Shown here piece after piece: positions 18,704-32,578 of a DNA stretch of 64,000 bases. Under the pieces are notes generated by a model. That model had not been told where the DNA came from and did no database searches. It saw only the letters and a program-made list of their open reading frames with translations. The stretch's first letter is position 1. Every line of letters starts with the position of its first letter. A program made the translations under genes and the position numbers. The DNA is from an uncultured Lachnospiraceae bacterium (GTDB lineage: Bacteria > Bacillota > Clostridia > Lachnospirales > Lachnospiraceae): assembly GCA_946632055.1 (NCBI GenBank), contig CAMPAR010000002.1:10131-74130 (forward strand). Reading direction: 5' to 3'.

Positions 18704-18752
18704 GGAAGGCGTTGAGCCGGACGGATTTAGCGTTTTCTGCCCGGAAAGTACC

Positions 18753-18847
18753 CCGAGCCGAGGGTAATCAACCTTCCTCATGAGGCGTATACGAAGTCAC
18801 GCCGAAGAGGAAGGTTGATCACGCAGGCGAGTTTTGCAGTAAGAAAC
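18753..18847. repeat. family-B structured repeat, copy 1 (CCGAGCCG head, 13-bp stem, conserved 27-nt loop, one CAGGCGAG tail unit)
   Basis: Head 18753-18760. Stem ATCAACCTTCCTC (18767-18779) pairs with GAGGAAGGTTGAT (18807-18819). Tail ends 5 nt before the stop codon at 18848. Confidence 0.85.
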
Positions 18848-21201: not shown

Positions 21202-21353
21202 CCGAGCCGAGGGTAATCATACTCCCTCATGAGGCGTATACGGAGTCACGCCGAAGAGGGAGTATGATCTCGCAGGCGAGTTTCGTCATAATCAGGCGAG
21301 TTTCGTCATAATCAGGCGAGTTCTATCAACCCCCAGGCAAGTTCCGCCAATGC
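21202..21353. repeat. family-B structured repeat, copy 2 (head, stem-loop, about four 20-bp tail units)
   Basis: Head 21202-21209. Stem ATCATACTCCCTC (21216-21228) pairs with GAGGGAGTATGAT (21256-21268). Tail CAGGCGAGTTTCGTCATAAT x2 plus two degenerate units to 21353. Fills the whole gap between two stop codons. Confidence 0.85.
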
Positions 21354-23674: not shown

Positions 23675-23709
23675 AAAAAGTCTGTGAAATCCGCTTTCAC
23701 AGACTTTTT
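23675..23709. terminator. bidirectional rho-independent terminator
   Basis: AAAAAGTCTGTGAAA / TTTCACAGACTTTTT perfect stem flanked by A- and T-runs. Confidence 0.75.
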
Positions 23710-23729
23710 TGTTGGACATCTGTTGGACA
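23704..23729 (+). promoter_or_regulatory. 26-nt conserved element with TTGGACA-N4-TTGGACA direct repeat (copy 1)
   Basis: CTTTTTTGTTGGACATCTGTTGGACA is identical to 30270-30295. A TTATTC -10-like hexamer follows 7 nt downstream. Lies about 100 nt upstream of the phosphatase ATG. Confidence 0.5.
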
Positions 23730-23827
23730 GGGAGTGTTATTCTGCTGCTGTAAGATCAGGAAAAGTGCGTATTTTCGGTCAGAAGAATACGCTTGTATGT
23801 TTTTTACAGCTACAGAGGAGGCAGGTC

Positions 23828-25189
23828 ATGAAAACGCTCCCGAAAACCCTCATCGCGATCGTCATCAGTCTGGCAGCAGCATTTCTTCTGCTGTCCTGTC
23901 TTGACGCGTTCTATGAGAGTGAGTCGGGTACGATTGAGGAAATCCTGACCGGTGAGGAACAGCCGGACGAGAAGGGCCTGCTGCACCCGGGCTACACGCT
24001 GCAGCAGACGGTCATCTTAAGCCGCCACAATATCCGTTCGCCCCTGAGCGGAAAAGGCTCGGTGCTGGATTCGATTACGCCTTACGAGTGGTTCCAGTGG
24101 ACCTCGGAACCCGGCGAGCTTTCGGTGCGCGGAGGCGTTCTCGAGACCGAGATGGGCCAGTATTTCCGCAAGTGGTTTGAGAGAGAAGGGCTGTTCCCGG
24201 AGGACTGCCAGCCGGAGGACGGCGAAGTGCGGATCTATGCGAACGCCAAGCAGCGCACCATCGCGACCGCGCGCTTCTTTGCCGCGGGGCTTCTGCCGAA
24301 TGCGAATGCGGAAGTGGAGTATCACGGGGAATTCAATTCGATGGACCCGGTGTTTAATCCGCAGCTTCATTTCATGACGGACGAATACCGGCAGGACGCG
24401 GACAATGAAATCCATGCGCTCTTCGATAAAAAAATCGCCGGACTGTCGGACAACTTCGAATTCCTTCAGGAGCTGATCAATATGAAGCAGTCCGAGGGGT
24501 ATCTGGACGGAAGCATCACGGATTTTTCCACGGAGGACACCTCGCTCATTCTGGAGGAGGACGCGGAGCCCGGAATGGCCGGTTCCCTCAAAACCGCCTG
24601 CTCCGTGAGCGATGCGCTCGTGCTGCAGTACTATGAAGCAAAAGAGCCCGAGGCCTCTTTCGGCCGGACGCTGACGACGGAACAGTGGGAGCAGATCGCG
24701 GAGATCAAGGACGTGTACGAGGATGTGCTGTTTACGGCGCCGCTGGTCGCATCGAACGCGGCGAACCCGCTTCTTCGGGAAATCGAAGCCGAGCTGAACG
24801 AAGAAGGGCGGAAGGTAAGCTTCCTCTGCGGGCATGACTCGAACCTTGCGAGCGTCCTTGCGGCGCTGGAGGCGGAGGACTACAGACTGCCCCACGCAAT
24901 AGAGAAAAAGACGCCGATCGGCTGCAAGCTCGTCATCGGCAGATGGAAGAGTTCGGACGGGAAGAACTATGTCTCCCTGGATCTTGTGTACCAGACCGCG
25001 GAGCAGTTAAGAGGCGTGACGCTTCTTGACGATGAGAATCCTCCGGCGGCGGTGCCGGTTTACCTGAAGGGCCTGAAAACGAACCGGGACGGCCTGTATG
25101 AAGAGGAAGCCTTCGAAAAGCGCCTGAAGGAAGCCATCGACCGCTATCAGGAGCTTCAGGAAAGCTACGCGGTCCCGGACGCGGCTTAA
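23828..25189 (+). CDS. secreted histidine acid phosphatase (branch 2; AppA/Agp/phytase-like) lipoprotein
   Basis: Lipobox LLLSC. Catalytic RHNIRSP (RHGxRxP) and downstream HD motif (CGHDSN). Confidence 0.8.
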   Translation: MKTLPKTLIAIVISLAAAFLLLSCLDAFYESESGTIEEILTGEEQPDEKGLLHPGYTLQQTVILSRHNIRSPLSGKGSVLDSITPYEWFQWTSEPGELSVRGGVLETEMGQYFRKWFEREGLFPEDCQPEDGEVRIYANAKQRTIATARFFAAGLLPNANAEVEYHGEFNSMDPVFNPQLHFMTDEYRQDADNEIHALFDKKIAGLSDNFEFLQELINMKQSEGYLDGSITDFSTEDTSLILEEDAEPGMAGSLKTACSVSDALVLQYYEAKEPEASFGRTLTTEQWEQIAEIKDVYEDVLFTAPLVASNAANPLLREIEAELNEEGRKVSFLCGHDSNLASVLAALEAEDYRLPHAIEKKTPIGCKLVIGRWKSSDGKNYVSLDLVYQTAEQLRGVTLLDDENPPAAVPVYLKGLKTNRDGLYEEEAFEKRLKEAIDRYQELQESYAVPDAA

Positions 25190-25530
25190 TCGGCCTCGAT
25201 TTCTTTAATAATGCACTCGTTTCCCTTCAGGAGCCAGGTTTCCCCGGAGCCGCAGTGCGGACAGGTACGGCCGTATTTCACGGTTTCGTAAGTGCTTTTG
25301 CAGCTGTCGCACCAGGTGACGGCCGGGATGGTCTCCATGCGGAGCTCCGCCTCAGCAAGGACCGGGTGCCTTTTTCTGAAATAATTCCAGCAGTCTTCAA
25401 AATAGTCGGTGACAATCCCGCTGACTTCCCCGATTTCCAGTGTGACGGAGGAGATCCTTTTCAGGTTCTCCTCCGTCGCTGTCTGTTCGAGCGTCTTCGC
25501 GAGGTGTATAATAATCCCCATTTCGTGCAT
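25186..25530 (-). CDS. hypA: hydrogenase/urease-type nickel insertion protein HypA
   Basis: 114 aa. N-terminal MHEMG (MHE nickel site) and zinc ribbon CDSC..CPHCG. Confidence 0.85.
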   Translation of the reverse strand: MHEMGIIIHLAKTLEQTATEENLKRISSVTLEIGEVSGIVTDYFEDCWNYFRKRHPVLAEAELRMETIPAVTWCDSCKSTYETVKYGRTCPHCGSGETWLLKGNECIIKEIEAD

Positions 25531-25548
25531 AACACTGCTCCATAAACC

Positions 25549-25677
25549 CCGAGCCGTACGGGTTGAATTGTATTTTCATGCAGAGCTCACTCCGAGCCGT
25601 CCGGGCTGATTTGTCTTTCCATGCAAAGTTCACCTCGAGCCGCCCGGGTTGATTTGTATTTCCATGCAGATCTCACC
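25549..25677. repeat. three tandem 43-bp repeats, each starting with the CCGAGCCG head
   Basis: Units start at 25549, 25592 and 25635 (CCGAGCCGTACGGGTTGAATTGTATTTTCATGCAGAGCTCACT and variants). Immediately followed by family-B copy 3. Confidence 0.85.
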
Positions 25678-25748
25678 CCGAGCCGAGGGTAATCATACTT
25701 CCTCATGAGGCGTATACGGAGTCACGCCGAAGAGGAAGTATGATCACG
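25678..25748. repeat. family-B structured repeat, copy 3 (head and stem-loop)
   Basis: Head 25678-25685. Stem ATCATACTTCCTC (25692-25704) pairs with GAGGAAGTATGAT (25732-25744). The 27-nt loop is identical to copy 2. Confidence 0.85.
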
Positions 25749-25840
25749 CAGGCGAGTTTTGCCATTACAGGCGAGTTTTGCCATTACAGGCGAGTTTTGC
25801 TATTACAGGCGAGTTTTGCCATTACAGGCGAGTTCAGCAA
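25749..25840. repeat. tandem 19-bp tail array of family-B copy 3 (4 full units plus 1 partial)
   Basis: CAGGCGAGTTTTGCCATTA units at 25749, 25768, 25787 and 25806, with a partial unit at 25825. Ends exactly at the stop codon (25841) of the 977-aa gene. Confidence 0.85.
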
Positions 25841-28774
25841 TCACACGCGGCTGTCGTCGCCGTCCATGAGGTCGGCGAGGTCCACGGCGTTGCCGGTGTG
25901 CGGATGCGTCTTGTGGAAGTCCTTCGTCGCCTCATTGTAGGCTTTGCGCTTCCTCTTCATCTCCTTCGCTTCCTCGGAACCGCTGTTCTTAATGATCTTA
26001 ATGCCGCGCTTCACGGCGTAGGAGAGGAGTCCGCCGACCTTGTCTTCCGCGCGCCGCATGTCGGAATTATCCGGATGGTCGCGGAGAAGGTGGATTGCGT
26101 CGAATTCGCAGCGGGTCGTGCAGAGACCGCAGCCGATGCACTTGTTGGCGTCGACAATCGTAGCGCCGCAGGAAAGGCAGCGGGAAGTTTCGATCTTCAC
26201 CTGCTCTTCGGTAAGGGTCAGCCTCGGATCGCGGAAGCCGTGCTTCGGATCGATCGAAGGATCGACGGCCGGCACCTGGCGTCCGGCGGAGTCGTAGGAA
26301 TCGATGGCGATATTAGTCTTATCGAGTTCCTTGAAGTAGCGGCGGTCGCGGCCGAGCTTCTGAGGAACGCTGTTCTTTGACACAAAGCGCGCGAGGGATT
26401 CCGCCGCTTCGTGGCCCTGTCCGATCGCGTCGATCACGAATTTCGGACCGGTAAAGACGTCGCCGCCGACGAAGATTGCCGGATCATCCGTCTGGTAGGT
26501 GAAGGGATCGGCAATCGGGTAAGCGCCGCGGAACCTGACGTCGGTGCCCTTTAAGAGATCTCCCCACTGAATGGCCTGTCCGATCGCAAATACAATGTGG
26601 TCGGCCTGAACCGTCATCGTATCGTTTTCATCATAGGCGGGAGAGAATTTTCCGGTCGCAGGGTCGATCGTTCTGAGACAGCGCTTCAGCACGAGGCCTG
26701 TAACCGTGCCGTCTTCTCCGACGAGCACTTCCTTCGGGCCCCAGCCCGGGTTCATCCGGACGTTTTCTTCCTCAGCTTCCTGGATTTCCTCCGGGGAGGC
26801 GGGCATCGTGTCACGGGATTCGAGACAGAACATGGAAACCTTCGAGGAACCGAGCCTTCCGGCGGTTCTCGCGCAGTCGATCGCGACGTTTCCGCCGCCG
26901 ATGACGACGGTTTCACCGGGAAGCTCCGTGATCGAGCCGCCGAGCGCGTTTTCAAGGAAATGCACGGCGATGTCGGTGCCTTTCGCGGTTTCATTCGGGA
27001 TGCCGGGGAGACGGCCGCCCTGACAGCCGATCGCGACATAGAAGGCCTGATAGCCCTGCTTCTTCAGTTCGTCAATCGTGATATCCTTTCCGACCTCCAC
27101 GCCGCAGCGGATTTCGGCGCCGAGCGCGCGGATCACGTCGATTTCCGCGGCGATGACGTCCTTCTCCAGCTTGTACGCCGGAATACCGTACTGCATCATG
27201 CCGCCCGGTTTCTCGTGCTTTTCAAAGACCGTCGGCTTGTAGCCGCGGGACGCAAGATAGTAGGCGCAGGAAAGGCCTGCGGGGCCGGCGCCGATGATCG
27301 CGATCTTCTGATTCCAGGAGCCGCTTAAGTTGTTCACAACCTTCTTCGGAATATAGCGGGTTTCGGCCTTCAGGTCCCGCTCTGCCAGGAATTTCTTCAC
27401 GTCGTCAATCGCGACCGGCTTGTCGATTGTGCCTCTCGTGCAGGCGTCTTCACAGCGCTTGTTGCAGACGCGTCCGCAGATCGCCGGGAAGGGGTTCTCG
27501 CGCTTGATGAGCGCGAGCGCCTCGTCGTAGCGGCCTTCTCTGGCCATCCGAAGGTAGCCCTGAATCGGCACGTGAGCGGGGCAGGCGGCCTTGCAGGGCG
27601 CGGTGCCGGTCTTGTGCGTGTTGACGCGGGCGGTGTCGCGGTAGTTTTCGTCCCAGGCGTATTTGCCCCAGCGAAGCGCGTCCGGGATCGGGGACTTCGG
27701 ATACCGGACTTCCGTCCCGTCCTTTTGGCAGAGCTTTTGGCCAAGCTTTAAAGCGCCGGCGGGGCAGACTTCCACGCAGCGGCCGCAGGCGACGCAGTTT
27801 TCCTTCGTAACCTGAGCCGTATAGGCGCTCTTCGACATATTCGGCGTGTTGAAGAGAAGCGAGGTCCGAAGCGCGTTGCAGATCTGGACATTGCAGTTGC
27901 AGATATCGAAGATGTGGTCCTCGCCGTCGATATTCGTGATCTGGTGCACATAGCCGTTTTCTTCGGCCTTCTGAAGGATATCGAGCGCTTCTTCCTTCGT
28001 GATATAGTGCGCCCGGCCGGTTTCGACGGTGTAATCCGCCATGTCGCCCAGCTGGATGCACCAGTCGTTTTCATCGTCCGTGCAGCCCTCGCCGAGCTTC
28101 GCGCGCGAGTAGCGGCAGGAGCAGATGCCGGCGGCGATATGGCCGTCGTACTTCTGCAGCCAGTAGGAGATCTTCTCGATCGAGGCGGCTTCCCGGGTCA
28201 TCTGCACTTCCTTTTCGACCGGGATGACATGCATGCCGATGCCGTTTCCGCCGGGGCGCACCATCGGCGTGATGTGCTCGAGGGGCAGGAAGGTCATGCG
28301 CTCAAACATTCTCGCGACCGCCGGATTCTTATCGACGCGGTCCTGAGAGGAGTTGAAAAGCTCGGCGGAGCCGGGCACAAAGTAGCTCGTGCGGAAGCGC
28401 TTTTCCTTCGGAGCGCCCGGAATCGGGCCGTTGTCGTCATAGTGATCGCCGTAATCGTACTCGACGAAGCCGTGGGTGCAGAGCAGTTCGAGCGCCTTGT
28501 CGAAGCGCTCATTTCCGAGCGCGGCGTTCATTTTCCGAAGCTCTTCCTCGGTGTACCATTTGCGCTGCTTCATCGAAAGCGCGATGTCCACCTCGTCCTC
28601 CGTCAGGATTTCCCGGAGGCCCCAGTACTCCTCGTCGGTCGTTTTCAGCCCGAAGAGCTTGTGCGGCACATTGTCCGTGATTTTCGCGCCGAGCTTCGCG
28701 TATTTCTTCTGAAGCACGGCTTCCCCGTCATACTTTGACTTGGTTTCCGGATTCTGATCATATATTTCCGGCAT
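25841..28774 (-). CDS. 977-aa multi-cluster Fe-S flavoprotein (GltD-like NAD(P)H/FAD oxidoreductase core fused to ferredoxin-like and Cys-rich N-terminal domains)
   Basis: GltD-type strings CKAACPAHVPIQGY..ICGRVCNKRCEDAC, dinucleotide fold IAIIGAGPAGLSCAYYL and a second GGGNVAIDCA. CxxCxxCxxxCP motifs: CVACGRCVEVCP and C-terminal CLSCG..CIGCGLCTTRC. The N-terminal ~330 aa is Cys-rich and of unknown function. Confidence 0.8.
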   Translation of the reverse strand: MPEIYDQNPETKSKYDGEAVLQKKYAKLGAKITDNVPHKLFGLKTTDEEYWGLREILTEDEVDIALSMKQRKWYTEEELRKMNAALGNERFDKALELLCTHGFVEYDYGDHYDDNGPIPGAPKEKRFRTSYFVPGSAELFNSSQDRVDKNPAVARMFERMTFLPLEHITPMVRPGGNGIGMHVIPVEKEVQMTREAASIEKISYWLQKYDGHIAAGICSCRYSRAKLGEGCTDDENDWCIQLGDMADYTVETGRAHYITKEEALDILQKAEENGYVHQITNIDGEDHIFDICNCNVQICNALRTSLLFNTPNMSKSAYTAQVTKENCVACGRCVEVCPAGALKLGQKLCQKDGTEVRYPKSPIPDALRWGKYAWDENYRDTARVNTHKTGTAPCKAACPAHVPIQGYLRMAREGRYDEALALIKRENPFPAICGRVCNKRCEDACTRGTIDKPVAIDDVKKFLAERDLKAETRYIPKKVVNNLSGSWNQKIAIIGAGPAGLSCAYYLASRGYKPTVFEKHEKPGGMMQYGIPAYKLEKDVIAAEIDVIRALGAEIRCGVEVGKDITIDELKKQGYQAFYVAIGCQGGRLPGIPNETAKGTDIAVHFLENALGGSITELPGETVVIGGGNVAIDCARTAGRLGSSKVSMFCLESRDTMPASPEEIQEAEEENVRMNPGWGPKEVLVGEDGTVTGLVLKRCLRTIDPATGKFSPAYDENDTMTVQADHIVFAIGQAIQWGDLLKGTDVRFRGAYPIADPFTYQTDDPAIFVGGDVFTGPKFVIDAIGQGHEAAESLARFVSKNSVPQKLGRDRRYFKELDKTNIAIDSYDSAGRQVPAVDPSIDPKHGFRDPRLTLTEEQVKIETSRCLSCGATIVDANKCIGCGLCTTRCEFDAIHLLRDHPDNSDMRRAEDKVGGLLSYAVKRGIKIIKNSGSEEAKEMKRKRKAYNEATKDFHKTHPHTGNAVDLADLMDGDDSRV

Positions 28775-28810
28775 GTTTCAACCCCTCCCTCTTTGGTATA
28801 TCCTACAGTT

Positions 28811-29485
28811 TTATACAGTGCCCTGCGGGCCCGTTTTCCATTCGTTCATGCGTTCAAGAAGCCAGTCCGTGAGCGCCTTCATCCCTTCCCCGGTTTTGGC
28901 CGAAACCGGGAAGACAGAAAGCCCGGGATTCAGCTTTTTCGCGCGCTCTTTGCACTTTTCGAGATCAAAATCGAACCAGGGCAGCGCGTCCAGCTTTGTC
29001 ACGACCAGCGCGTCGGATTTCTGAAACATCAGCGGATATTTCAGGGGCTTGTCGTCGCCCTCCGGAACGCTGAGAATCATCATGCTGAGTCCGGCGCCGG
29101 TGTCGTATTCGGCGGGACAGATCAGGTTTCCGACATTTTCAAGAAAGGCGAGATCGTACGCGCCGGATTCCAGTGCTTTTACGGATTCCCAGGTCATCCC
29201 GGCGTCCATATGGCACATGCCGTCCGTATGAACCTGGACGGCTTCGGCGCCGAGCGCTTCAATCCTTTCCGCGTCGACGGTGGATTCGATATCGGCTTCG
29301 AGAACGGCAATCCGCGTGTCCGGAAGCTCCCGGATGATCCGCGAAAGAAGCGTCGTCTTTCCGGCCCCGGGGCTGGACATCAGGTTGACAAGAAGCGTGC
29401 CCTGACGGCGCATTTCGGCGCGCAGCGCGTCGGCCTCCCGGTCATTTTCTGCCGTGACGGAAGCGTGGAGTTCAATGACCTTCAT
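28811..29485 (-). CDS. hypB: nickel-dependent GTPase HypB (paralog 1)
   Basis: P-loop SSPGAGKTT, metal-site CHMD, ENVGNLICPA, TKLD. No His-rich or CxxCGC N-terminus. Confidence 0.9.
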   Translation of the reverse strand: MKVIELHASVTAENDREADALRAEMRRQGTLLVNLMSSPGAGKTTLLSRIIRELPDTRIAVLEADIESTVDAERIEALGAEAVQVHTDGMCHMDAGMTWESVKALESGAYDLAFLENVGNLICPAEYDTGAGLSMMILSVPEGDDKPLKYPLMFQKSDALVVTKLDALPWFDFDLEKCKERAKKLNPGLSVFPVSAKTGEGMKALTDWLLERMNEWKTGPQGTV

Positions 29486-30168
29486 GTGGCGGAGCCTCCT
29501 TTCCTTGCGGCCTGCAGCCTCTCGTCCAGGAAGCGGCAGAACGCCTCATAGCCTTCGCCGGTTCTTGCGGATACCGGGAAAACGGAAAGACCGGGATTCA
29601 GTTTCAGGGCCCGCGCCGAAGCCGACGCCTCGTCAAAATCGAAGACCGCCTTCGTGTCGGTCTTGCTGATGAGAAGACAGTCGCTGATCTGAAACATCAG
29701 CGGGTACTTTAAGGGCTTGTCGTCGCCCTCCGGGACTGACAGGATCATCACGCGTAGATCCGCGCCGACCTCAAACTCCGCCGGACACACCAGGTTTCCG
29801 ACGTTTTCGAGAATGACGAGGTCAAGATCCCGGATCCCGAGCGCCTGAAGCCCGCGTCGCGTCATATCCGCGTCCATGTGGCAGAGCCCGCCGGTGTGAA
29901 TCTGGATGACCTTCGTGCCGGTCTCCGCGACGGTTTTTGCGTCCGTATCGCCGTCCGCATCGGCCTCCATGACGCCGATCCGGTATTTCCTTCCGAGCCT
30001 TTTCACGATCTCCAGCACCGTACTCGTTTTTCCGGCCCCGGGGCTTCCCATGAGGTTCAGGAGAACGGTTCCGTTTTCCGAAAGCATGCGCCGGTTTTCC
30101 TCGGCGGCTTTATCATTGTCCGCCAGGACCTGTTCCTTGATTTCAACGATTTCGAAATGATTTTCCAT
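29482..30168 (-). CDS. hypB: nickel-dependent GTPase HypB (paralog 2)
   Basis: GSPGAGKTS, CHMD, ENVGNLVCPA, SKTD. Its stop overlaps the paralog-1 start (ATGA). Start chosen at MENHFEIV. Confidence 0.9.
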   Translation of the reverse strand: MENHFEIVEIKEQVLADNDKAAEENRRMLSENGTVLLNLMGSPGAGKTSTVLEIVKRLGRKYRIGVMEADADGDTDAKTVAETGTKVIQIHTGGLCHMDADMTRRGLQALGIRDLDLVILENVGNLVCPAEFEVGADLRVMILSVPEGDDKPLKYPLMFQISDCLLISKTDTKAVFDFDEASASARALKLNPGLSVFPVSARTGEGYEAFCRFLDERLQAARKGGSAT

Positions 30169-30269
30169 GTTTTTTCTCCGTCTCCTAAGTATAGCAGAAA
30201 CCGGGGACCTTTTGCAAGCCGAAATCATTTTGTCGGGCGGCCGTTTTTTTAGAAATGTTCAAGTAAATG

Positions 30270-30376: not shown

Positions 30377-32578
30377 ATGGCCATTACCGTTCAACAGTTA
30401 AGAGAAAACCTCAACCAGAGCCTTCAGTCCGCGAGGATTGCGGAGGTTTCCGAAGAGCAGAAGATGCTTCGCATCGCCGAAGTGCTGGCTTATTTCCGGG
30501 AACTGAGCCGGGTGGAAGAAAACGGCGGAGCCGTCGATATCGACGAGGTAAACCGTAACCTGCGGGTCGTTCTCGACGGATCGGCGCTGAAAGCCCTATC
30601 GAGGCGCGGGCTGCTTGGCGAACTCGCCGCCATGACGCCGCAGGCGATGAACCAGCGTGTTCGCGCGCTCGAAGCCGAAATCGGCCGTTATCCTGCCGGA
30701 AATGCAGAAGATGCGGCCGCGGCCGGGAATATTTTCGCGCAGATGGACCGTACTTGGCGTGTCAGCAGCAACAGTGCGGAGTACCGCGAAGCTTTGCAGG
30801 CCATGCGGGACATTTCAAACGGCGGCGGGCCTTCGCAGACGGACAATTATCTTGCGGCCGAGAGCCTGAAAAAGTATGTTCAGAAGAATCTGAACAAGGC
30901 GAAATCCACGGTCGGAAAGACGCGCATGGCCTGTTCTCTCGCTTTTCTGAAGAAAACCATGTCCGAGCAGGATTTCCGCGCCTACTGCAGTAATCTGAAC
31001 GGACTGCGGCGTGTTACGGGCAATATCGCCGCAAACGGGGTGGTGGAATTTGACAGGACGAATCCCCGCGCCATTATCCCCGAGGAAATCGGGACGATCC
31101 GGGAAGTCTACAATGCTGCGCGGGAACGCATCAGCCTGGCGGCGCAGGAAAACCGGAAGCCCGCCCCGCGCGATCTCGCGATGCTGACCGCGCTGAAGAC
31201 GATGGAAGCGAAGAACCGGAACCGCGGCGGCGGTAATCTGATCGTGGAGCATGAGTCGCTGCAGGAGGAAATCGAGAAGGTGATGCGGGATCCCCGCTTT
31301 ACAAACGCGATTGCGAACCGCACGGCCGACGAGCTCTGCGAGATGGGCTTCGGCGGAAATCTCGATACGCTCCAGGGCTATACTGCTCCCTTAAGACCGG
31401 AGCAGCAGGAGCGGGTCAACGCGGCGAGAGACCAGGAGGAGGCCGACAGAAGAGAGAACCTGCGCAACCAGTTGAATGAAAAACAGAGAGCCTGGGAAGC
31501 GGAGGAAAAGAAGATCGCAGATGCCCGCATGCAGAAGGTCCGGGAGGCGGAGGAAGCAAGGAGAAAGGAACAGGAGCGCATCCGTAAAGAGCAGGAAGAA
31601 CAGAAATTCCTGAAGGAGCACAAGTCTGTAACTGAAATGCTCAGAGAGCTTCTTCCGACCATTACGAAGCTGGACAGGAGCATCAGCGCGAAAAAGAAAG
31701 AGGAAAAACCGAAGGGAGACCTGGTGGACGATGCCTTCGAGCTTTTGAATGAAAAGAAGGAGCCGAAGCCGACGGATCACATGGTGGAAGACCTGATGGA
31801 CGAAATCCTGAACGATACCAAGCTGAAGGAGAAGGATCTCATCGATCTTACAGCGACGCTGATCGCCATTGGGGAAGGCGAGAAAAGTACGAAGTTGGAT
31901 CCGAAATACCCCGACAAGATGCTGAATATTCAGCAGGTGAAGAAGCACGCTGATCAGCTGAAAAAGGATCCTATTGTCAAAGAAGCGGCAAAGGACCTCC
32001 AGAATCTGTACCGGGAAGGCGTGAAGAACGCCAACAAGACCAATTACAGTGAAGACAACGTAAAACTGTATCCTGCGGTCTACATGTCTGCGTCCTTGTT
32101 GAAAGATTACAGGAAAAAAGTGAAGACGAAGGAACGGCTGGACAAAATGGTTATAGCAGACTACTACAAATCCGTTAGCCCGAAGACGGATGCGCTGTTC
32201 CGTCAGGAAAAAAAGATGAATGATAAGATAGCCACGAATCTTGCCGGTTACCTTGTGGCGCTGCATGAATTTGAAGTGAAAAACGGCGGCGTTAACGCGC
32301 ATTTGGACTTCGACGCCTTAAGGAATCGCCGTGAAGAACTGAAGAAGGATCCGGTCATCCAACAGATGGGCAAGGACCTGATGGAGCCGGCAATGCAGAA
32401 GAAGCTTCAGCGGACCGTCGTGATGATGGAAAACCGCGAGCACGCGTTCGGGGAAATGCTGGACAACATGTACCAGGATCTGACGGCCCAGAAGAATGCC
32501 CAGACAGGACCGAAGAAGCCGGAAGAAAACAATGCGCCCCAACCGGGAAACAATGCACCTCAGCCGGGCGTACACTGA
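30377..32578 (+). CDS. 733-aa hypothetical protein with internal repeats and a central charged coiled-coil
   Basis: Long uninterrupted ORF with an SD (AGGAGA). No signal peptide or TM. Repeated module ending in KKDP(I/V).. and a NNAPQPG x2 tail. No family recognised. Confidence 0.7.
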   Translation: MAITVQQLRENLNQSLQSARIAEVSEEQKMLRIAEVLAYFRELSRVEENGGAVDIDEVNRNLRVVLDGSALKALSRRGLLGELAAMTPQAMNQRVRALEAEIGRYPAGNAEDAAAAGNIFAQMDRTWRVSSNSAEYREALQAMRDISNGGGPSQTDNYLAAESLKKYVQKNLNKAKSTVGKTRMACSLAFLKKTMSEQDFRAYCSNLNGLRRVTGNIAANGVVEFDRTNPRAIIPEEIGTIREVYNAARERISLAAQENRKPAPRDLAMLTALKTMEAKNRNRGGGNLIVEHESLQEEIEKVMRDPRFTNAIANRTADELCEMGFGGNLDTLQGYTAPLRPEQQERVNAARDQEEADRRENLRNQLNEKQRAWEAEEKKIADARMQKVREAEEARRKEQERIRKEQEEQKFLKEHKSVTEMLRELLPTITKLDRSISAKKKEEKPKGDLVDDAFELLNEKKEPKPTDHMVEDLMDEILNDTKLKEKDLIDLTATLIAIGEGEKSTKLDPKYPDKMLNIQQVKKHADQLKKDPIVKEAAKDLQNLYREGVKNANKTNYSEDNVKLYPAVYMSASLLKDYRKKVKTKERLDKMVIADYYKSVSPKTDALFRQEKKMNDKIATNLAGYLVALHEFEVKNGGVNAHLDFDALRNRREELKKDPVIQQMGKDLMEPAMQKKLQRTVVMMENREHAFGEMLDNMYQDLTAQKNAQTGPKKPEENNAPQPGNNAPQPGVH

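Follow-up and report, generated by a model that had tools for sequence, protein, structure and literature searches.

A hypB-hypB-X-hypA operon in an uncultured Lachnospiraceae bacterium and its probable kinship with IsrA-type iron-sulfur flavoprotein reductases

The operon and its products

A 64,000-nucleotide stretch of the genome of an uncultured Lachnospiraceae bacterium (contig CAMPAR010000002.1, positions 10,131 to 74,130; hereafter the window) contains a minus-strand operon that encodes, in this order, two HypB proteins (hypB-1 and hypB-2), a protein of 977 residues that we call X, and HypA (Table 1). An initial annotation of the window had described the tandem hypB pair with its overlapping ATGA, the position of hypA after X and the plus-strand genes on both sides. 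The list of open reading frames (ORFs) bears this out, the two hypB genes sharing 4 nucleotides. The frame of hypB-1 could be read from further upstream. However, a promoter-like site falls inside the first 20 codons of this longer ORF, so that a start at M21 (position 30168), as in the initial annotation, is likely.

Both HypB proteins score well above the cut-off of TIGR00073 (232 bits for HypB-1 and 231 bits for HypB-2, with a cut-off of 121). As had been noted, they keep the P-loop (GSPGAGKT), the CHMD motif and the ENVGNLxCPA motif (ENVGNLVCPA in HypB-1), and neither N-terminus carries a His-rich or CxxCGC stretch. They align to the solved HypB proteins 2wsm, 4lps and 2hf8 with CH(M/L)D and ENVGNLxCP kept (E-values of about 1e-41 to 1e-43), and are 51% identical to each other. 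In a quick tree, HypB-2, which is next to X, clusters with the HypB that the closest Clostridia metagenome-assembled genomes (MAGs) have as their only copy, while HypB-1 is a divergent, long-branch paralog common to genomes of the same genus. An independent second hypB duplication is seen in a Christensenella-like group. X-linked and hydrogenase-linked HypB proteins are not cleanly separated in this tree: the HypB of one hydrogenase-bearing relative nests within the X-linked ones, and the latter are therefore ordinary HypB proteins. HypA reaches 111.9 bits with PF01155 (cut-off 28.9) and stays below the stricter cut-off of TIGR00100 (75 versus 88). Its nickel site M1-H2-E3 and its zinc cysteines C74, C77, C90 and C93 are invariant in 34 X-linked HypA sequences. 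With nickel and GTPase motifs intact, HypA and both HypB proteins look functional; that the two HypB paralogs act as a heterodimer is a speculation.

X is a multidomain iron-sulfur (Fe-S) flavoprotein. The combination of a GltD-like NAD(P)H/flavin adenine dinucleotide (FAD) module with several [4Fe-4S] motifs, already seen in the initial annotation, is recovered by PF14691 (70 bits), PF07992 (87 bits) and PRK12771 (441 bits). Ferredoxin motifs flank this module on both sides, one at residues 327-338 (CVACGRCVEVCP) and the other, CxxCxxCxxxC, near residues 880-890. The closest solved relatives are 9bov_A (3.9e-90), NfnA 9n5u_A (1.5e-78) and NfnI 5jca_L (3.6e-62), with 8oh5_C also among them. 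More generally, residues ~386-871 align with NfnB, GltD and dihydropyrimidine dehydrogenase (DPD) modules (5jca_L, 9n5u_A, 2vdc_G and 1gt8_A, and the molybdopterin fusions 9bov_A and 8oh5_C) with E-values of 1e-48 to 4e-90. What they have in common with X is the [4Fe-4S] cluster pair of DPD domain II, together with the Rossmann folds that bind FAD and NAD(P)H. These modules lack, however, the N-terminal domain of X, with its winged helix and its subdomain of six cysteines (Cys6), as well as the linkage to hypAB, whereas X lacks the molybdopterin domain. X was also considered as a member of the glutamate synthase small subunit/NfnAB family, and rejected: it scores 271 versus a cut-off of 472 for gltA (TIGR01316), and 255 versus 483 for gltD (TIGR01318). 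According to the ORF list, the operon holds no NfnA or GltB-like partner gene. YgfK (TIGR03315, 'putative selenate reductase subunit') is laid out similarly to X, with an extensive N-terminal region ahead of a GltD-like module and a ferredoxin at the C-terminus, residues 391-880 of X aligning with positions 444-894 of the model; X reaches, however, 258 bits for a cut-off of 835, and the N-terminal domains are unmatched. Homologues of X form at least 8000 clusters at 90% identity.

The first 330 or so residues of X, to which the initial annotation gave no known function, match no Pfam family even at an E-value of 10. A fold search with a model of the 390-residue N-domain (predicted local distance difference test, pLDDT, 61.6) returned winged-helix matches at residues ~55-131 only (VIA-align Z of 8 to 9), a fold so common that its functional meaning is weak.

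Table 1. Features of the operon and its surroundings, in window positions
Feature	Position	Strand	Basis or remark
hypB-1	29482..30228 (open frame); likely 29482..30168	-	ORF list; start at M21
hypB-2	28811..29485	-	ORF list; ortholog of the HypB that the nearest relatives have in single copy
X, putative IsrA-type Fe-S flavoprotein reductase, 977 residues	25841..28774	-	ORF list, domain matches
Predicted winged-helix subdomain, X residues ~55-131	28382..28612	-	AlphaFold2 model, pLDDT 80-94 in this stretch
Cys6 subdomain, X residues 195-310	27845..28192	-	Invariant C218-x-C220-R221, C239, C292-x-C294, C299
Ferredoxin motif CxxCxxCxxxCP, X residues 327-338	27761..27796	-	Directly after the Cys6 subdomain
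DPD-domain-II [4Fe-4S] pair and GltD/NfnB-like FAD/NAD(P)H module, X residues 390-800	26375..27607	-	PF14691, PF07992
C-terminal ferredoxin-type Cys motifs (CxxC ... CxxCxxCxxxC), X residues ~865-900	26075..26182	-	Sequence; second Fer4 stretch; weak FwdF match at 872-900
Spacer between X and hypA, 310 nucleotides	25531..25840	-	Repeat analysis
19-nucleotide tandem unit, 4.5 copies	25749-25834		In the X-hypA spacer
43-nucleotide tandem unit, 3.3 copies	25546-25685		In the X-hypA spacer
~80-nucleotide dispersed repeat, one copy	~25678-25760		In the X-hypA spacer
hypA, nickel metallochaperone, 114 residues	25186..25530	-	PF01155, 112 bits
Sigma-70-like -35/-10 site upstream of hypB-1, TTGCAA-18-TATACT with TG	30188..30217	-	Consensus scan; weak, number of sites equal to shuffle expectation
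Histidine phosphatase (phytase-like)	23684..25189	+	Flanks the operon on the hypA side
733-residue ORF, divergent from the operon	30377..32578	+	Flanks the operon on the hypB-1 side

Linkage of X to hypA and hypB

Two sets of genomes were searched. The first comprised 60 related genomes and the window's own (61 in total), the N-terminal 330 residues of X serving as query. Full-length X homologues were found in 15 of them, the window's own included. In 12 of the 13 relatives' contexts that were fetched, hypB lies upstream and/or hypA downstream of X, down to 43% identity between X proteins (tblastn), and homologues flanked by hypB/hypA range from 43 to 92% identity. The second was a scan of prokaryotes with one genome per species, from which the nearest 80 loci were taken; 57 of them, from six phyla, keep 1.6 kb or more of sequence on either side of X. 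The 80 loci come mostly from rumen and gut MAGs (Clostridia, Erysipelotrichaceae, Lachnospiraceae, Bacteroidales, Spirochaetia, Atopobiaceae/Coriobacteriaceae, Hallerella and Acholeplasmatales). The linkage is strongly conserved: among the 57 well-flanked loci, hypA adjoins X in 56 and hypB in 44. The order B-X-A dominates (33 loci), followed by X-A (9), X-A-B (7) and B-A-X (2), and six other orders, B-B-X-A and X-A-B-B among them, occur once each.

Within the 61 genomes, HypA is above cut-off in 21, including all 15 that carry X. The other six are G019, G021, G028 and G044, each with a match to the [NiFe]-hydrogenase large subunit, G024, where hypA and hypB adjoin a stand-alone Cys6 protein (see below), and G047, where the HypA match is borderline and lies inside a frame of 471 residues. 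The [NiFe] large subunit is present in 6 genomes, one of them X-bearing. CooS is present in 14, only one of which has HypA, and this one also carries X with hypAB alongside. HypA presence therefore tracks X or [NiFe]-hydrogenase, and not carbon monoxide dehydrogenase (CODH). It also follows from the counts that genomes carrying X mostly lack a classical HypAB client, since 1 of the 15 has the [NiFe] large subunit and 1 of the 15 has CooS.

The initial annotation had found no hydrogenase, CODH or urease gene in the window. The same holds for the genome at large, assembled to 2.28 Mb over 135 contigs and 90% complete: there is no match to PF00374 ([NiFe] large subunit), PF03063 (prismane/CODH), PF01924 (HypD) or PF00449 (urease alpha subunit). 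Genes for a LarA-like protein, for LarC and for a fused Cbi(MN)/Nik(MN)-type energy-coupling factor (ECF) importer with CbiQ are, however, present (contigs C122:907-1524, C4:59079-60356 and C51:13239-13862). The LarA-like gene is served by its own nickel insertase, LarC, and the importer on contig C51 is of the CbiM type, for nickel or cobalt. The genome therefore uses nickel (or cobalt) independently of the hypB-hypB-X-hypA operon.

A hydrogenase, urease or CODH gene may have escaped assembly, being part of the ~10% of the genome that is missing. HypA and HypB would then serve this classical nickel enzyme in trans, and their place beside X would be incidental. An assembly in 135 contigs leaves some room for such a gene. 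However, the [NiFe] large subunit (PF00374) gave no match in any of the 16 genomes of the same genus, the CooS-bearing relatives have no HypA save the one that also carries X, and the adjacency of X and hyp genes is kept across six phyla. We consider this scenario very unlikely.

Alternatively, X may have no need of HypAB at all, the linkage being regulatory or due to hitch-hiking in a mobile cassette. The occurrence of the B-X-A cassette in distant phyla suggests horizontal spread as a unit, and HypB proteins from different phyla interleave in the quick tree. However, gene order varies (BXA, XAB, BAX, XA) and yet adjacency persists, which argues for selection on co-expression rather than for a frozen cassette. 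Moreover, isoprene induces the expression of hypA and hypB together with isrA, the Acetobacterium wieringae counterpart discussed below (PMC10134865). This explanation appears extremely improbable to us.

Given that hypA is found in 56 of 57 loci and HypA in 15 of 15 X-bearing relatives, the conserved linkage clearly favours X as a HypAB client in cis over chaperones acting in trans. The initial annotation had offered both possibilities, and had called X an unrecognised enzyme in the former case. X as client gains from the linkage; 'unrecognised' was wrong, as such a module was published in 2023 for IsrA, and the nickel part is still hypothetical.

Some of the X loci deserve a separate mention. 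After hypA and hypB, the most frequent neighbour is a gene for a DUF5692 membrane protein. It occurs in 19 or more of the 80 loci, downstream of hypA and mainly in Bacteroidales (for example, L108:10591-11688), often with a small ORF of ~110 residues between it and hypA. DUF5692 was not found in the window's genome, in a search whose DUF5692 control was also without any match. Two loci carry two X paralogs (about 936-938 and 973-974 residues) and a single hypA, in the order X-A-X in L055 and X-X-A in L056. In a Bacilli MAG (L067:4730-9913), the X frame is open for ~757 further codons upstream, giving 1727 residues in total, which may be a fusion or a read-through frame; the extension has no Pfam match and the locus no hypB.

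IsrA and the subdomain of six cysteines

The 2023 system is an isoprene-induced operon of Acetobacterium wieringae (Kronen et al. 2023, PMC10134865). Besides IsrA (VUZ27132.1, 901 residues), a putative isoprene reductase, it codes for a ferredoxin, one HypB and two HypA, and the A. wieringae genome lacks both [NiFe]-hydrogenase and hypCDEF. IsrA belongs to a 'clade 9' that is made up of full-length homologues from many anaerobes, and of 988 IsrA homologues 73% have hypA nearby and 56% hypB (PMC10134865). In Pelotomaculum, isoprene strongly co-induces hypA and hypB according to two preprints of 2026, which contain no biochemistry. The hypB-hypB-X-hypA module is probably an operon of this IsrA-type ('clade 9') reductase, with HypA and HypB loading nickel for X; the locus is thus a further member of an already published, suspected and still hypothetical class of nickel enzymes.

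The resemblance between X and IsrA concerns several levels. Both are Fe-S flavoproteins of ~900-980 residues, in which DPD domain II is joined to a GltD/NfnB-like FAD/NAD(P) module and a ferredoxin motif lies at the C-terminus; in both, the Cys6 site is held by an N-terminal region without known domain, and in both cases hypA and hypB are adjacent in a genome that lacks [NiFe]-hydrogenase and hypCDEF (for X, judged by the large subunit and HypD). The nickel site proposed for IsrA consists of six cysteines with two CxC motifs, C180/182 and C254/256, and ferredoxin motifs are located at 289-300 and 848-877 (PMC10134865). In X, the CxC motifs are at 218/220 and 292/294 and the ferredoxin motif at 327, which gives spacings of 74 and 35 residues, the same as in IsrA; homologues preserve them too. 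In contrast, X is longer (977 versus 901 residues) and its Cys motifs come 38 residues later. The window operon has two hypB and one hypA; in the isr operon the numbers are reversed (one hypB, two hypA), and a further ferredoxin of the Cys6 type is encoded. The window's host belongs to rumen/gut Clostridia without known isoprene metabolism. Compared with nickel insertion into [NiFe]-hydrogenase, the HypA and HypB families are the same and their nickel and GTPase motifs are intact. However, the window's system lacks the large and small subunits, HypD and a maturation protease context, and the presumed client, a flavoprotein, has a site of cysteines alone.

Residues C218, C220, R221, C239, C292, C294 and C299 are invariant in our alignments A1, A3 and A4 (40 to 62 sequences in A3 and A4), and so is C327 of the ferredoxin motif. 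A1 and A4 show no variation at C330, C333 and C337 either; in A3, C330 and C333 are at least 90% conserved, and C337 is not among the listed positions. An AlphaFold2 model of residues 195-350, comprising the Cys6 subdomain and the ferredoxin motif (pLDDT 77.8), found no match among solved structures (Foldseek E-value > 0.5, VIA-align best Z 4.0). No domain of the acetyl-CoA synthase (ACS), HdrB, double-cubane or any other metal-site type surfaced in these searches. Pfam and NCBIfam returned only generic Fer4 matches, on the N-domain of X as on the stand-alone Cys6 proteins. The prediction of a complex between the X N-domain (350 residues) and HypA returned no answer (score 0.00). The CxC motifs near a [4Fe-4S] ferredoxin motif do recall the A-cluster of ACS, in which nickel at a Cys-Gly-Cys site is linked by a bridge to a [4Fe-4S] cluster, a parallel that Kronen et al. 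drew from their model (PMC10134865). It is a resemblance only, as we found no sequence or fold similarity (best Z 4.0).

The relatives' genomes also encode stand-alone proteins of 350 to 445 residues that consist of the Cys6 site with a ferredoxin motif. They are directly flanked by hypA and hypB in G024 (contig C22, locus L020 829-3231; 442 residues) and in G053 (contig C10, locus L027 16-2100; 350 residues); for the ferredoxin group of the IsrA operon, Kronen et al. gave no hypAB association (PMC10134865). The ORF upstream of hypA in G028, a further candidate, is not Cys6-like.

Several observations weigh against an IsrA-type operon with nickel loading by HypAB. Stand-alone proteins of ~425-445 residues in G031, G051 and G058 keep the six cysteines, R221 and the ferredoxin motifs in genomes without a HypA match. 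As Cys6 proteins occur in HypA-free genomes, the Cys6 site may not need HypAB, and its simple equation with a nickel site is weakened. Among the 56 hypA-linked loci, 12 have no hypB within range. X is assigned to the IsrA type by its architecture, by the spacings between its motifs and by its gene neighbourhood, not by alignment to IsrA (VUZ27132.1), and none of the nearest 80 X loci of the one-genome-per-species scan is from Acetobacterium. The window's organism has no link with isoprene, its genome is only 90% complete, and our literature search found no metal analysis or enzyme assay for any member of the family.

In another scenario, X is indeed the HypAB client and the metal is not catalytic nickel: HypA and HypB would help to build or shield an all-iron Fe-S cluster of an unusual kind, deliver zinc or another metal at Cys6, or act elsewhere on X. 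Cys6 proteins with all six cysteines and R221 in genomes without detectable HypA fit this scenario, as do the 13 of 57 well-flanked loci from which hypB is absent, and CxC motifs bind Fe-S clusters in other proteins too (PMC10134865). However, the MHE nickel site of HypA is invariant, HypB keeps its Cys-His...Cys nickel site, and the position of the hydrogenase relative's HypB in the quick tree marks the X-linked HypBs as ordinary ones. Moreover, we know of no established role of HypAB outside nickel. We therefore hold a non-nickel role to be unlikely.

If HypA and HypB do load nickel for X, the following mechanism may be proposed. NAD(P)H would reduce the FAD of the GltD/NfnB-like module, and electrons would run via four canonical [4Fe-4S] clusters to a metal centre on the six invariant N-terminal cysteines, with their two CxC motifs. 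HypB, as a GTPase, and HypA would load nickel into this Cys6 centre or beside it, and the centre would reduce a small, probably hydrophobic unsaturated substrate (for IsrA, isoprene to methylbutenes). A bolder proposal, which we make only tentatively, is that Cys6 is a new nickel-iron-sulfur centre inserted by HypAB, and that X-type proteins, which abound in rumen and gut anaerobes, form a new class of nickel enzymes hydrogenating unactivated C=C bonds. Dietary conjugated dienes, terpenes or lipid intermediates could then be the substrates, and the HypB paralogs of the genus would form a dedicated heterodimeric nickel GTPase.

Should the 2023 hypothesis be true, there would exist a new class of nickel enzymes, NAD(P)H-linked Fe-S flavoproteins with a cysteine-only nickel site, served by the hydrogenase chaperones. 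The class would be widespread in rumen and gut anaerobes, it would explain most 'orphan' hypAB genes of hydrogenase-free anaerobes, and it could matter for the way in which microbes hydrogenate unsaturated hydrocarbons or lipids in ruminants. The locus itself adds little to this: another example, a variant with tandem hypB, and some caveats. What is new here is the lack of a structural match for the Cys6 subdomain, the existence of Cys6 proteins with and without HypA, and the divergent hypB paralog that genomes of the genus share.

The spacer between X and hypA, and the flanks of the operon

The 310-nucleotide spacer between X and hypA is found in the window's genome alone; in relatives, hypA follows X after 0 to 30 nucleotides. 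It is filled with two tandem arrays and one copy of a dispersed element of ~80 nucleotides (Table 1). Further copies of this element are found in the window at ~18750-18837 and ~21202-21283, and on contigs C37, C1 (two copies) and C11. The copies are intergenic, contain an internal inverted repeat and are 84 to 97% identical within the window's genome. The element looks like a small dispersed repeat of the miniature inverted-repeat transposable element (MITE) or repetitive extragenic palindromic (REP) kind.

As for expression, sheep-gut metatranscriptome contigs contain a few short exact pieces of X and hypB-1, with parts of the operon uncovered and DNA carry-over possible; this is a weak hint that the operon is expressed in the sheep gut.

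Among the flanking genes, the 733-residue ORF has no Pfam or NCBIfam match. On the other side, the histidine-phosphatase gene and hypA are convergent and overlap by 4 nucleotides, which leaves no space for a terminator between them.

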